Source: Escherichia phage vB_EcoM_G2494. Taken from it: DNA of 64,000 nt. Positions 9,865 to 29,820 of the stretch are shown one piece after another. The translations under genes and the position numbers were made by a program. How positions within the stretch are numbered: position 1 is the stretch's first letter; the number at the start of each line of letters is the position of its first letter. The notes under the pieces are model-generated. The model was not told where the DNA came from, made no database searches, and saw nothing but the letters and a program-made list of their open reading frames with translations. The DNA is taken from sequence record MK327935.1; one strand, 5' to 3'.

Positions 9865-9896
9865 AAAGGCGGGGATTATCCCCCGCCTTTTTATTT
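9865..9896. terminator. bidirectional rho-independent terminator
   Basis: stem GGCGGGG/CCCCGCC with loop ATTATC, T-run on plus and A-run upstream; lies between convergent genes 54 and 9891 lipoprotein. Confidence 0.65.
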
Positions 9897-10376
9897 TGCT
9901 AAATCATTGCAATATTTTAGTGCCTTAGTTTGAAATTCTGCGCTGTTAAGTTCTTCATAACGGTCATAATCACCGTTTAATGCTGCCTTTCTTGCTTCTT
10001 GCTCTATCTGCATGTCAGACATGATAATACAGCGATCCCGTGCTTTCATCTTCTCAAGTTGTATAGACTCTTCTTTCTGCTTGCGCAATTCTTCTTGACG
10101 CTTCTTTTCTTCTTGTGCTTTCTCTTCCCGCGCTTCTTTGATTGCATCCTTGAACATCTGCGTTTGTGGTGCTAAACCAACTTTAACGCGATCTACGTCT
10201 CGACGTTCCATTTTAGAAATAAAGCATGATTCGATCTTATCATCACTTGCATATGTTGCTTTACATTCACGAAGCAAGAAAACCGGATCTGATTTAGCAT
10301 TCATCATAGCTTCCATGTTAGCACAACCAGTAAGCATGAATACAGCCGCAAGACCAATTAGTTTAATCATTTTCAT
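9891..10376 (-). CDS. putative lipoprotein with K/E-rich coiled-coil segment
   Basis: signal peptide MKMIKLIGLAAVFMLTGC with lipobox LTGC; start overlaps upstream ART gene stop. Confidence 0.6.
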   Translation of the reverse strand: MKMIKLIGLAAVFMLTGCANMEAMMNAKSDPVFLLRECKATYASDDKIESCFISKMERRDVDRVKVGLAPQTQMFKDAIKEAREEKAQEEKKRQEELRKQKEESIQLEKMKARDRCIIMSDMQIEQEARKAALNGDYDRYEELNSAEFQTKALKYCNDLAK

Positions 10377-11197
10377 TTAGTCACCTCACCGAAAATTGTA
10401 AATTGTCTACGATTCTCATCGCCGAAAGATTCTACTACGTCGTTTACCTTGACGCAAGTCCCGCGCGGTAAAATTACTTCACATTCGCAAGGGTTCCATG
10501 CAATGGACCCAACAACAAAACCTTTATGATCTTTTACATCAATCACCCATGATACATTACAAGAATGTTGCATCTTTCCGGTCATTGATTCATATCGATT
10601 CTCACAATAAAGGCTAGTGCTGTTTGAAAGCCATCCTCCAAAGATGATCGGTGTCATGCTAGTAGATACAAAGTTTTTAAAGGTAAATTCCTTATCTTCA
10701 ATAATACGCTCTATTGTCTGAATGTCAAGATGTTGACCGCGATAAAGAGTACCGTTTAACTTTTCGGTTTTATCCATGACACAATCCATCAAATCAACAA
10801 TCTCTGATATCTCATCGGTCATGTCTTCTTCCCCTAAGAGAGCACCATTTACCCATTCGTATTGTTCAGACACATAATCACAGATTGCATTATATTCTGC
10901 TGGGGTTATGTTGTTATGTTTGTAATGTTTGAATACATTATCTCCAAAGTCTTCGGAGTGTACTTCATACATCACATTAATGATTTTCTTTACAAATCCA
11001 TAATCTTGTGTCTCGCGCTCAAGGAAGCGGATAACCTTCACATAATCATCAAAGTTAATCTGATCGCTGATCATTTCAGTGATCATGTAACCATTAATAC
11101 CATCAATGTCATATGTTTCGATGTAATTATCCATACGTTCCATCATTGATTCGCGTGATTCTTCCGAAAGACGAAAATCCTGTAATTTCTTGAACAT
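10373..11197 (-). CDS. Alt-like mono-ADP-ribosyltransferase paralog (R-S-ExE type)
   Basis: LYRGQ, FVSTSMTP, NPCECEVILPRG motifs parallel the Alt C-terminal catalytic domain. Confidence 0.7.
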   Translation of the reverse strand: MFKKLQDFRLSEESRESMMERMDNYIETYDIDGINGYMITEMISDQINFDDYVKVIRFLERETQDYGFVKKIINVMYEVHSEDFGDNVFKHYKHNNITPAEYNAICDYVSEQYEWVNGALLGEEDMTDEISEIVDLMDCVMDKTEKLNGTLYRGQHLDIQTIERIIEDKEFTFKNFVSTSMTPIIFGGWLSNSTSLYCENRYESMTGKMQHSCNVSWVIDVKDHKGFVVGSIAWNPCECEVILPRGTCVKVNDVVESFGDENRRQFTIFGEVTK

Positions 11198-26749: not shown

Positions 26750-26953
26750 TTAACCGTATACGCGAAAGTATTCTACTGATCCGTCGCTATACTGTTTTAC
26801 ATTGAATGTATTCACACCATGATCATTGCTCATAATGACATACACACTGCGACGCTCATCACTAAACGGGTTAACTGGTGCGGGTTCAATTTCAACATTA
26901 AAACCACGTTTAGCAAGTGCTTCGCCTAATTGCTTGAGTTTATCGGTAAACAT
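26750..26953 (-). CDS. hypothetical protein (67 aa)
   Basis: ORF between cd and pseT. Confidence 0.45.
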   Translation of the reverse strand: MFTDKLKQLGEALAKRGFNVEIEPAPVNPFSDERRSVYVIMSNDHGVNTFNVKQYSDGSVEYFRVYG

Positions 26954-27852
26954 TAAAAGTCTCCGTAGTTAACCTGAAAACATTCTACACCAATTGAGCG
27001 GTACATGTCAACCACTTGATCACGGTCATCTACTGCCAACACAACATGATAACGCGGTGCAATTTCAGAGAAGAAAATCTCTTTCTTCACTTCATGATCA
27101 GGACGACGATCATTAGTTTCACGTTGAAAGTGATCGCTAGGTTCAATACCCTGTTCACGCAACCATTGCAGAGTATCTTCTTCGCAAACATCCTCACGCC
27201 CTGAGCATGTAATGATACGATAACCATTATCACGATACAGTTTAAGCATTTCGATCACTTGCGGACGCGGTTTATCTTCTTTGACCTTTGTCCAGTCAAA
27301 CGGATGACGACCGCCCTTATCCGCTAATGTTCCATCAATATCAAAGATCACTGCCTTCGGCAGCATGGTATTCGGTTTGTATACTTCTTGACCCATATAT
27401 TCCTGCATCAGATAAAATTGGTTACGCAAATGAGAAAGTGGAATTGCTTTCTCGCCTCGATAGAAATTACGTTTCTTTAGTGTCTCAAATGATTCATTGA
27501 ACACTTGTTCAGTATACACCGCGTTAAATTCTTTTGCAAGTTCTTTGTAGAATACACGATGTTTTTCTTTCAGGTTAGTATCAGAGATAATGATACTTAA
27601 TCCGCGTGATAGAGTCTCACGAGCAATCATTCTCTGAATAGACTCTACCAGCTTTTCTTTTTCCTTAGTATACTTGTATTTCAAATGTGAGTCAACACCA
27701 AACAACATAAGACGAAGATCATCACGATTCACATTACGATAATTACTAAACCGGTTACATGTTTCCATAGCCCATGTAGTTTTACCAGACCTAGAACAAC
27801 CAACGGTTAAAATCACTTCACATTTCGGCATTATTTCTCCTTCGGTTTGCAC
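26953..27852 (-). CDS. pseT: polynucleotide 5'-kinase / 3'-phosphatase
   Basis: Walker A GCSRSGKTT, RDD motif, HAD motif DIDGTLA; 299 aa (T4 PseT 301). Confidence 0.85.
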   Translation of the reverse strand: MQTEGEIMPKCEVILTVGCSRSGKTTWAMETCNRFSNYRNVNRDDLRLMLFGVDSHLKYKYTKEKEKLVESIQRMIARETLSRGLSIIISDTNLKEKHRVFYKELAKEFNAVYTEQVFNESFETLKKRNFYRGEKAIPLSHLRNQFYLMQEYMGQEVYKPNTMLPKAVIFDIDGTLADKGGRHPFDWTKVKEDKPRPQVIEMLKLYRDNGYRIITCSGREDVCEEDTLQWLREQGIEPSDHFQRETNDRRPDHEVKKEIFFSEIAPRYHVVLAVDDRDQVVDMYRSIGVECFQVNYGDF

Positions 27853-28286
27853 CGTTCCTCATTAAGTTCTTTTCGATAATAACACATGATCAACTTACTT
27901 TCAAGTGTATATCTCTTAATATCCGCAAGCCAGACTCTGAATTTTTGGGAGTCCTCCCACGACATAGAAACTCTAGGTTTACCGTCTATTGTATCCACTT
28001 TCAGGTCAATGTCAACTTTTTCTATTGGTGCTGGTAGTTGAGGATGTAATTTCGGTTCCTGTGAATACTGGTCCATTGTACACGAAGAAAGAGCAAATAC
28101 AATAGGCACAGCGAAGACATGGATTATGGCGGTCTGAAAATTCTTATGTGCTTTCTTAAACATCCGGTGTATCACGAAAATTGAAAACACCATCAGGATA
28201 ATAATAATGCTTGCCCCTATCCCCAGATAATCAACCAGATTAAAATTGCTTATCTGCTCTTGCGTAGGCAATATTTCTATGCTCAT
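27831..28286 (-). CDS. putative outer-membrane spanin-like lipoprotein (o-spanin position)
   Basis: hydrophobic segment with lipobox LSSC; start ATGA-coupled to i-spanin stop with AAGGAGG RBS; alternative internal start at 28163. Confidence 0.4.
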   Translation of the reverse strand: MSIEILPTQEQISNFNLVDYLGIGASIIIILMVFSIFVIHRMFKKAHKNFQTAIIHVFAVPIVFALSSCTMDQYSQEPKLHPQLPAPIEKVDIDLKVDTIDGKPRVSMSWEDSQKFRVWLADIKRYTLESKLIMCYYRKELNEERCKPKEK

Positions 28287-28606
28287 TTAGTAGCCTCCTT
28301 TAATTCTTCGGTAAACTCCTTAAATGAATCATTAAGCTGTTTCTCTACCAACTTGGGTTTTTGTGCTACTACATAGCCTCGTGTAGCGTCTTTCATTGCT
28401 TTGTTTTGTTCTTCTGCAAACTTAGTTCTTATTCCGTACATCTCCTTTTGTAGTGAGTCTACGACCTTCATCTTTTCATCGGTCTTTTTCTTATACTCTG
28501 TAAATTCCCGATTCAGTCGATCTACCTCCTTTTTATTTTCCCACCACATATTGCCACCTACCCCTAGCAACACAGAGATGATAACAATGTATATCAGCTT
28601 TGACAT
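28283..28606 (-). CDS. putative inner-membrane spanin (Rz-like)
   Basis: N-terminal TM LIYIVIISVLLGVGG then coiled-coil; ORF track start 28657 over-extends into terminator hairpin. Confidence 0.5.
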   Translation of the reverse strand: MSKLIYIVIISVLLGVGGNMWWENKKEVDRLNREFTEYKKKTDEKMKVVDSLQKEMYGIRTKFAEEQNKAMKDATRGYVVAQKPKLVEKQLNDSFKEFTEELKEATK

Positions 28607-28650
28607 ATTACCCCCAACGACAAAAGGCGGGGAACTAGCCCCGCTTATTA

Positions 28651-29820
28651 TTACCAATCAATCTTATCAGCCGGAATCAGTTTCTTATAATTCCGTAGAT
28701 AGTAAGTTTTCATTGAATCCAGAATACGGTCATAATCAAGACCATCAAATGCAATCATCAGACACATGAAAATATATGCTTGTGCATCACCATGTTTACG
28801 TGATTCGATAGTCGCATTTGATGCATATGTCTTTCTGTCTTCTCCCGCGTGTGCGTTATAAAATTCTGTTGCTGTAGTGAAGGCATTGCGAAGAATAGAC
28901 CTGAATGCTTCCTCGAATAACTCGATTCGTTCCAGTGCTTCCGGTTCGCCTTCATATGCAGCACGCAAATCATCGGTTTCGCTTTCTACGACATAGTAGA
29001 TCAGGTTATTAGGAAACATCGATGTGTTTTTAATGTTATGCACACCAATATACCATTCACTCTTCACTTTGAACATTTGACCGTCTTTAGTGCGTGCAAC
29101 AATTCCTTCGATACCTTCTGCGGTCCGAACTTCATCAAGAATATTGCTAAAATGCGCTGAATCAACCTGTAACGCATTTACCAGATGAGGACGTAGGATT
29201 GCGTCAGCAAATAGCATTTGATGCGGTACGTACTCTCCTGTGACGTTATGGCGTACATTCAGAAGTGTTAGCGACGGTTCAGAATATTCTACAACAATTC
29301 GGTTGCTGGGTGCTGTATATTCAAAGTTGAAAGTATAATCAGACCCAATATCAGCAATCTTAGCGCGTAGATCCGCATACTTCTCTGAATACAGAAGACC
29401 GTTTGCTCTCTCTGCCTGGCTTGAGTACAAGGCCGCTTTAGACTTCAACTGAACATAGCCGTTATCAATGTAGGTGCTTACTAGACTACCGTCCATTTTG
29501 TCCATGACCATTTCCACATCTTCCGGCTTAAAGCGAGCGCGATCATTCTCACCCAAATTAAAAAACTTCTCCATAGGACGAGATGCGATGCGGACCGGAC
29601 GACCTTTATCGTCAATTTCAAACATGATCCCGCGACACTCTAACGCATCTGGTTTATTCCACATTTCCGGTTTGCTCAAGTACAGATAGCTAAAAATGCG
29701 CATACGGGTTTGCATCGCCGTAATTTCATCTTTGTAATAGAACGTATCAGATCCGTCACACAGTGCCATCAGATTTTTGAACAATGCTAAAACTTTTTTG
29801 TTGTTTTCTTTTGTTGACAT
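28651..29820 (-). CDS. rnlA: RNA ligase 1
   Basis: KxDG adenylation motif DKMDGSL; ALECRGIMFE and RIASRPMEKFFNL match T4 Rnl1; start may be an internal Met (overlap with denA). Confidence 0.8.
   Translation of the reverse strand: MSTKENNKKVLALFKNLMALCDGSDTFYYKDEITAMQTRMRIFSYLYLSKPEMWNKPDALECRGIMFEIDDKGRPVRIASRPMEKFFNLGENDRARFKPEDVEMVMDKMDGSLVSTYIDNGYVQLKSKAALYSSQAERANGLLYSEKYADLRAKIADIGSDYTFNFEYTAPSNRIVVEYSEPSLTLLNVRHNVTGEYVPHQMLFADAILRPHLVNALQVDSAHFSNILDEVRTAEGIEGIVARTKDGQMFKVKSEWYIGVHNIKNTSMFPNNLIYYVVESETDDLRAAYEGEPEALERIELFEEAFRSILRNAFTTATEFYNAHAGEDRKTYASNATIESRKHGDAQAYIFMCLMIAFDGLDYDRILDSMKTYYLRNYKKLIPADKIDW

Follow-up and report, generated by a model that had tools for sequence, protein, structure and literature searches.

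A long, conserved and probably translated leader precedes the lipobox of the PseT.2-type outer-membrane spanin in Krischvirus phages

Escherichia phage vB_EcoM_G2494 (record MK327935.1, of which a stretch of 64,000 nucleotides, here called the window, was analysed) carries two genes on the minus strand that are homologous to pseT.3 and pseT.2 of T4-type phages. In our assessment this pair is probably the two-component spanin of Krischvirus, in which the outer-membrane spanin (o-spanin) is made from an ATG that overlaps the gene of the inner-membrane spanin (i-spanin), as a precursor of 151 amino acids (aa) with a bipartite leader of 68 residues, and is cleaved by LspA to a lipoprotein of 83 aa. 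Comparison with relatives supports the homology, the gene order and the conserved coding nature of the leader, and reveals that several relatives have no usable internal start. The spanin pair itself is already known and its odd leader has been recorded as an observation. What is new here is the comparative evidence for a translated, conserved long leader, together with a testable topological model.

The T4 proteins PseT.3 and PseT.2 complement a lambda Rz/Rz1 defect, and both Cys87 and Cys98 of T4 PseT.2 are essential (Kongari et al. 2018, PMC6139136). The same study lists RB49, Phi1 and JSE in the T4 i-spanin and o-spanin families. Its supplement gives the o-spanins of these three phages as 150 aa long, with a signal of 67 residues and a mature part of 83, under the flag 'Too long signal sequence'. 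The curators suspected that the annotated start was wrong and were unable to fix it: in their notes, the start at MFKKA lacks a good Shine-Dalgarno (SD) sequence and the annotated start 'has the perfect one'. The main text of that study is silent on the leader (PMC6139136), and we found nothing specific in the literature on experiments with Krischvirus spanins.

The window belongs to Krischvirus: 58 phage records match the 3 kb around the pair at 98-99% identity, and every one of them is from this group (RB49, Phi1, JSE and relatives). The gene order in RB49 is denA, rnlA, pseT.3, pseT.2, pseT, cd.2, cd, and RefSeq labels both pseT.3 and pseT.2 as 'Rz-like spanin'. The pair in the window occupies the T4 position, on the minus strand and in the order rnlA-pseT.3-pseT.2-pseT of the RB49 annotation. 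The product of the upstream gene matches the 'Rz-like spanin' profile phrog_739 at positions 4-122 of its 122 (E 1.8e-26), and BLASTP aligns its full length with T2 PseT.3 at 32% identity (E 2e-14). The product of the downstream gene matches a second profile of that name, phrog_812 (E 2.8e-32), through residues 54-151, which align with profile positions 2-101 of 102; against T2 PseT.2, BLASTP gives 48% identity in the mature domain (E 7e-24). Weak profile matches of the pair to phrog_214 and phrog_89 were also found (E ~0.02-0.03). Homologues of the o-spanin carry the precomputed Pfam family PF26831 (Phage_T4_Spanin); our own Pfam-A scan of the two window proteins returned sub-threshold noise only, and PF26831 was seen only in those precomputed annotations. 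A first-pass annotation, made from the DNA sequence alone, had proposed a spanin-like gene pair here, with a transmembrane (TM) and coiled-coil, i-spanin-like protein at 28283-28606 whose stop codon overlaps the start of a 151-aa open reading frame (ORF); homology and gene position support the spanin call, and the overlapping genes lie where it placed them.

The i-spanin begins with MSKLIYIVIISVLLGVGGNMWW (also given as MSKLIYIVIISVLLGVGGNMWWENKK) and has the layout of a type II membrane protein: MSK as a short basic cytoplasmic end, a hydrophobic segment at residues 4-22, then WWENKK. The TM anchor corresponds approximately to these residues (28541-28597), with the best 19-residue Kyte-Doolittle (KD) window starting at residue 4 (mean 1.86). 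Beyond this segment about 45% of the residues are charged, and the protein contains no Cys. It differs by one residue from the JSE i-spanin in the supplement of Kongari et al. (PMC6139136), which assigns the JSE protein 85 periplasmic residues, 70 of them helical, and the RB49 protein 71 helical residues out of 85, with a coiled coil at 25-56 in both. The single N-terminal TM domain (TMD) is present only if translation starts at the ATG at 28606, ahead of which stands a GGGGG SD sequence. The RefSeq versions of pseT.3 in RB49 and JSE (L001 2852-3118; L015 796-1062) start at an internal Met and are 267 bp long, encoding 88 aa without the TM anchor. The 324-bp reading restores the anchor, and the same reading was chosen in Sf20 and FL38 and by the curators of Kongari et al.

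The two genes meet in an ATGA at 28283-28286, where the i-spanin TGA (28285-28283) overlaps the o-spanin ATG (28286-28284). The same arrangement is found in RB49, T2, JS98 and all metagenomic relatives. The description of the pair as overlapping thus holds for the four shared nucleotides (nt), although in spanin nomenclature, where 'overlapped' denotes another class, a 4-nt overlap counts as 'separated', and RB49 is listed accordingly (sep, -4; PMC6139136).

The o-spanin precursor can be divided into four leader parts and a mature part (Table 1). The lipobox, AVPIVFALSS|C69, fits the core of the PROSITE pattern PS51257. In relatives L66 and C69 never vary, and S67 and S68 hardly do. Position +2 is occupied by Thr70 in the window and by Thr or Ser, never by Asp, throughout the relatives. 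The predicted mature protein is exactly 83 aa long in all representatives, as in T2 PseT.2, and its Cys135 and Cys146, which are invariant in the alignment of relatives, align with T2 Cys87 and Cys98 at the same spacing of 11 residues. The distance of the lipobox from the N-terminus is the sole feature in which the Krischvirus clade departs from the PseT.2-type family: Cys69 lies outside the usual range of ~15-35 residues, and falls within it (at position 28) only if counted from Met42, whose codon occupies 28161-28163. Both the hydrophobic helix ahead of the internal lipobox and the alternative Met at 28163 had been pointed out in the first-pass annotation, correctly in both cases. As the only hydrophobic segments of the o-spanin are at residues 15-44 and 50-71, with none at the C-terminus, and as a separate i-spanin gene is present, a unimolecular spanin was rejected. 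An AlphaFold2 model, used for secondary structure only because of its low confidence (pLDDT 66.6, pTM 0.31, from a 10-sequence alignment), places helices at 22-45 and 48-69 with a break at 46-47. After these come a Pro-rich linker modelled as disordered, then a beta hairpin (95-108) and a further helix (110-145). This predicted layout fits a leader folded as a hairpin, and resembles, though not exactly, the beta-alpha-beta organisation predicted for T4 PseT.2. One homologue from ENA (P0009, 108 aa) is alike up to about residue 78, beyond which its sequence is unrelated; its contig, from a metagenome, is probably frameshifted or chimeric, and the protein not a true variant.

Table 1. Features of the spanin locus in the window; residue numbers are those of the 151-aa o-spanin precursor.
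Feature	Position	Strand	Basis and remarks
rnlA (RNA ligase 1)	28651..29820	-	Pfam T4_Rnl1_C and RNA_lig_T4_1, phrog_562; directly upstream of the pair
Terminator-like GC hairpin with T-run	28627..28644	-	Between rnlA and the i-spanin gene; equivalent hairpin in the relative L016
i-spanin gene, pseT.3 homologue, 107 aa	28283..28606	-	phrog_739, T2 PseT.3 similarity, hydropathy
SD sequence AAGGAGG	28294..28300	-	7 nt upstream of the long start, inside the i-spanin 3' end; read from the sequence
o-spanin precursor gene, pseT.2 homologue, 151 aa	27831..28286	-	phrog_812, T2 PseT.2 similarity, RB49 annotation pseT.2
Leader part 1, acidic tail, residues 1-20, MSIEILPTQEQISNFNLVDY	28227..28286	-	0 basic, 3 acidic residues; motif LP..(7-8 residues)..FNL
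Leader part 2, first TM helix (TM1), residues 21-40, LGIGASIIIILMVFSIFVIH	28167..28226	-	KD mean 2.56; clade-specific addition
Leader part 3, basic loop RMFKKAHK, residues 41-48	28143..28166	-	Charge +4/-0; contains Met42
Leader part 4, h-region and lipobox, residues 49-68, NFQTAIIHVFAVPIVFALSS	28083..28142	-	A-L-S-S ahead of Cys69
Predicted mature o-spanin, residues 69-151, 83 aa	27834..28082	-	Cys69, Thr at +2, Pro-rich linker, beta hairpin, C-terminal helix, Cys135, Cys146
pseT polynucleotide kinase/phosphatase	26953..27831	-	Pfam HAD_PNKP (1.1e-52), phrog_505 (1.4e-113), RB49 annotation

Whether the long leader is translated was addressed by comparing the two possible starts across eight loci: the window, RB49, two IMG/VR contigs and four divergent metagenomic relatives. 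The two near-identical Krischvirus contigs were all that the scan of IMG/VR yielded, and the divergent relatives were taken from a protein collection. All eight have an SD sequence (AAGGAGG, AAGGAGA or AGAGAGG) 7-8 nt upstream of the long ATG, whereas nothing SD-like occurs in the 22 nt preceding Met42 in any of them. The window and most Krischvirus genomes have two ATGs in the same frame, at a distance of 41 codons. The second is replaced by ATT in L006 and by ATA in L008, two lineages at 62% identity, and by TTG in phage JSE.

The extension upstream of Met42 is conserved as protein. A single full ORF, 150-155 aa long and altered by no indels other than in-frame ones, is retained in 58 of 58 phage records and in all eight clusters formed at 90% identity, which reach down to 62% identity; all of them also have the 107-aa i-spanin and the ATGA overlap. 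Conserved residues of the extension are L6, P7, F15, N16, L17, G22, G24 and M32. A motif (LP, 7-8 residues, FNL, three residues, LG(I/V)G) and a hydrophobic helix of 19-20 residues are conserved as well, and the hydrophobicity and the LG(I/V)G part of the motif persist down to 62% identity. The charge layout is also kept: among seven representatives the tail has a net charge of -1 to -3, and the loop one of +2 to +4 with no acidic residue. With the exception of one pair, dN/dS in the extension is 0.13-0.35 where dS could be computed (it is saturated in several pairs), and for most of these pairs ~0.2-0.35. These values are close to those of the signal-peptide segment and indicate weaker constraint than in the mature domain (0.06-0.21). 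Base composition would by itself leave the 41 codons ahead of Met42 free of stops with p ~0.06, so it is the conservation of the extension, not its openness, that carries the argument. As the long start has an SD sequence, Met42 has none and is not conserved, and the extension is conserved as protein, the comparison favours the long form over internal initiation at Met42. Of the two options left by the first-pass annotation, an internal start or an unusual fused architecture, the unusual long form is thus preferred and the internal start, which lacks an SD sequence and reads ATT, ATA or TTG in relatives, is disfavoured.

Several points weigh against a long leader that is translated and processed. 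By the standard rules for lipoproteins the Cys lies within ~35 residues of the N-terminus, a rule that Cys69 breaks, and we found no published precedent for the processing of a lipobox behind a TM hairpin. The curators of Kongari et al. obtained a good LipoP match only from the MFKKA start and not from the full ORF (PMC6139136). One pair of relatives (L012 versus L008) gives a dN/dS of 0.89 for the extension, a short segment in which such estimates of selection are noisy, and the confidence of the structural model is low. Some initiation at Met42 may still occur wherever this codon has stayed ATG, as in the window phage.

A rival explanation is that the long ORF is an annotation artefact. The o-spanin would then start at Met42 (28163) as an ordinary prolipoprotein of 110 aa with a 27-residue signal, and the 41 codons ahead of it would go untranslated, as a spacer whose open frame is fortuitous. 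Such a protein satisfies every lipoprotein rule (K/R within the first seven residues, Cys at position 28, the PS51257 core), it is the form that the LipoP match and the curators' suspicion of the annotated start would point to, an open stretch of this length is not very improbable by chance, and all other T4-type o-spanins are only 92-100 aa long. However, the near-perfect SD sequence stands at the long start and none precedes Met42 in any relative, and two lineages and JSE lack the ATG. The frame has stayed open although synonymous sites are saturated, with indels in multiples of three only, and the stretch encodes a conserved hydrophobic helix, motif and charge layout. An untranslated gap of 120 nt would also be unusual in such a tightly coupled string of genes. 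We therefore regard an artefact as quite unlikely.

A regulatory role for two starts is a related explanation. Here both forms would be made where Met42 is present, or the long form would be poorly cleaved, and the TM-tethered form would modulate the activity or timing of the spanins as an 'anti-spanin', in the manner of the two-start pairs of holin and antiholin. The two in-frame ATGs of the window and most Krischvirus genomes would allow this, the extra TM helix would tether an uncleaved form to the inner membrane, and the conservation of the leader suggests some function. As the second start is neither conserved nor preceded by an SD sequence, a dual start cannot be a conserved function of the clade, and a start pair of the lambda S105/S107 type was rejected on the same grounds (no SD sequence in any relative; ATT, ATA or TTG in three lineages). 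The near-invariant lipobox, and a charge layout that places it correctly for LspA, argue for cleavage. We know of no spanin regulator of the 'anti-spanin' kind, and consider this explanation unlikely.

The topology and the cleavage of the long precursor, and any role of its leader, we infer from the positive-inside rule, the Lgt/LspA/Lnt pathway and the Lol +2 rule. Translation of the o-spanin would begin at the long start, with its strong SD sequence, and would probably be coupled to that of the i-spanin. The leader would present, in order, the acidic 20-residue tail, TM1, the short basic loop, which doubles as the n-region of the lipoprotein signal, and an ordinary h-region with the lipobox. 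As the tail is acidic and free of lysine and the loop strongly basic, insertion as a helical hairpin is expected from the positive-inside rule: the tail would end up in the periplasm and the loop on the cytoplasmic side, with the lipobox at the periplasmic face of the membrane. The second helix would then run from inside to outside, which is the orientation that a lipoprotein signal needs. Lgt, LspA and Lnt would act on Cys69, with diacylglycerylation and a cut by LspA between Ser68 and Cys69. Because Thr rather than Asp occupies position +2, the mature lipoprotein of 83 residues is predicted to be sorted to the outer membrane by Lol, where it would pair with the C-terminus of the i-spanin. 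As is the case for the T4 proteins, the inner-membrane PseT.3 homologue and the outer-membrane PseT.2 homologue would together span the periplasm and destroy the outer membrane at the last step of lysis.

After cleavage the 68-residue two-helix peptide would stay behind in the inner membrane. The added helix could slow or gate maturation, could bring the precursor together with the i-spanin anchor, or could yield a stable peptide with a role of its own. A stronger version of this idea takes the leader for a conserved inner-membrane module of two helices that LspA releases, and gives either the peptide or the delay in maturation its own role in lysis timing or spanin assembly. It seems doubtful to us; if it were true, it would show that lipobox processing is possible behind a TM hairpin and not only at the N-terminus.

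More specifically, the leader may be a second gene product, a two-helix peptide that persists in the inner membrane, is made 1:1 with the o-spanin and perturbs the membrane, interacts with the i-spanin anchor, or controls superinfection or lysis timing. There is a parallel in the bacteriocin release lipoprotein of pCloDF13, whose signal peptide is stable after cleavage and contributes to membrane damage. The motifs LP..FNL and LG(I/V)G are also conserved beyond what mere hydrophobicity would need. However, the extension is missing from the sister lineage and from all other T4-type phages, it is under weaker constraint than the mature domain, and there is no free-standing homologue of the leader in the window or among 1.84 billion representative proteins. 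A distinct second product is thus very unlikely in our view.

We next consider where the added helix came from. When the 151-aa protein was compared by tblastn with 50,697 phage records, 1,132 matched, and the first ~40 residues were covered only in the 58 Krischvirus records; other T4-type genera, with their o-spanins of 92-100 aa, align from about residue 38 at the earliest. The closest outgroup is a sister lineage (protein P0010, locus L016) whose 98-aa o-spanin has an ordinary signal of 21 residues, MIWRGLLKMLSTLLTPAVLTG|C (Cys22), and begins at the same ATGA-overlapped start. Its arrangement of rnlA, terminator hairpin, 107-aa i-spanin and ATGA is that of the window, and its mature o-spanin domain is 64% identical to that of the window. 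As this lineage has a short, ordinary leader without the TM extension, the extra helix looks, from this sequence comparison, like a clade-specific insertion into a normal leader. The sister locus (L016 2192-3200, ena:ERZ27235406:k119_4708) also differs in having no pseT between the spanin genes and cd; its o-spanin gene is followed by an AT-rich spacer of 170 nt with promoter-like TTGAC and TATA elements.

Searches for a source of the extension were negative. Duplication was rejected, as the extension found only chance matches when compared with the whole window by tblastn and blastn. Derivation from a neighbouring T4 gene was rejected as well: T2 PseT.1 and the product of the next ORF are soluble proteins with no relation to it, and tblastn of T2 PseT.1 and Alc against the window returned nothing. 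A profile of the extension alone, searched against the 1.84 billion representatives, returned only the same o-spanin clade. The one additional match, the repeat protein P0011, shares the short motif FNL..LG.GA by chance and was discarded.

The T4 and T2 pair is the nearest known system. The proteins are homologous and belong to the same PHROG families, and the genes share the position upstream of pseT and the ATGA overlap. PseT.3 has one N-terminal TMD and no Cys, like the i-spanin of the window, although it is longer in T4 and T2 (117 versus 107 aa). PseT.2 has the same 83-aa mature part with two Cys 11 residues apart, but its signal has 16 residues and ends at Cys17, where the window has a 68-residue leader with an added TM helix. 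The T2 and JS98 proteins are accordingly 99 and 96 aa long, each with Cys17, compared with 151 aa and Cys69 here. In both of these phages the pair is flanked by alc and pseT.1, which are absent from the window.

The 'embedded' pair Rz/Rz1 of lambda is alike in combining a type II inner-membrane protein that has a helical periplasmic domain with a small outer-membrane lipoprotein. It differs in that there is no sequence similarity beyond the weak matches to the profiles phrog_214 and phrog_89 and that the window genes are not embedded. Rz1 is Pro-rich and unstructured, whereas the o-spanin of the window is predicted to be structured (beta hairpin and helix), and the disulfide pattern differs. 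The unimolecular spanin gp11 of phage T1 also unites a lipoprotein signal and a TM helix in one polypeptide. However, its lipobox is N-terminal and its TMD C-terminal, and the mature protein bridges both membranes, whereas the TMD in the window lies ahead of the lipobox and would be removed together with the signal. Conceptual precedents without any sequence relationship are the bacteriocin release proteins, for a stable cleaved lipoprotein signal, and the M13 procoat, for insertion as a two-helix hairpin. In the procoat the cleaved signal is the first helix, while in the o-spanin of the window it would be the second.

The o-spanin TAA and the pseT ATG overlap in a TAATG, through which pseT is translationally coupled to the o-spanin gene. 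The gap between rnlA and the i-spanin gene measures 44 nt (28607-28650), and the terminator-like hairpin (28644-28627) is its sole content. T2 and JS98 have alc between rnlA and pseT.3. The first-pass annotation had seen no alc-like gene at this place, and tblastn with T2 Alc likewise found none between rnlA and the pair, nor anywhere in the 64-kb window (no match at E<=10). Reports that RB49-like phages have unmodified cytosine would fit the absence of alc. A search of the window with T2 PseT.1 (tblastn) found no homologue either.

Inside the mature part of the o-spanin gene, a sigma-70-like promoter sequence matching at 11 of 12 positions (TTGACA, 16-nt spacer, TACAAT; 27988-28015, minus strand) is directed towards pseT. 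It could be an internal early promoter; the promoter scan as a whole barely exceeded the expectation from shuffled sequence (12 found versus 8.0 +/- 3.2). Upstream of the pair, the longest rnlA ORF (389 aa) and the end of denA have 65 nt in common (29756-29820, minus strand), as they do in the RB49 annotation. As gene calls in relatives give RnlA a length of 354, 372 or 389 aa, the true rnlA start may lie downstream of that of the longest ORF.

Spanins elsewhere in the genome would have spoken against the identification of this pair. The only other clear lipoprotein in the window is encoded by a 161-aa ORF at 9891-10376 (minus strand), with a textbook signal, MKMIKLIGLAAVFMLTG|C, and a charged C-terminal part. 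This ORF and the end of a gene for a 274-aa Alt-like ADP-ribosyltransferase (10373-11197, phrog_15144) overlap. The lipoprotein was rejected as a second spanin, since it belongs to a family of unknown function (phrog_16112) and has no i-spanin-like partner, and the spanin assignment of the PseT.3 and PseT.2 homologues stands.

The spanin pair in itself adds nothing new to what is known of T4-type phages. Its remaining value lies in the leader, which is of interest to specialists in spanins and lipoprotein biogenesis and is a caution for the annotation of start codons and lipoboxes. Should the long leader be confirmed, the Krischvirus clade would be systematically mis-scored by gene callers and by finders of spanins or lipoproteins that demand a lipobox near the N-terminus. 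The o-spanins of this clade would then also be a natural test case for the action of Lgt and LspA on a lipobox that follows a TM hairpin.

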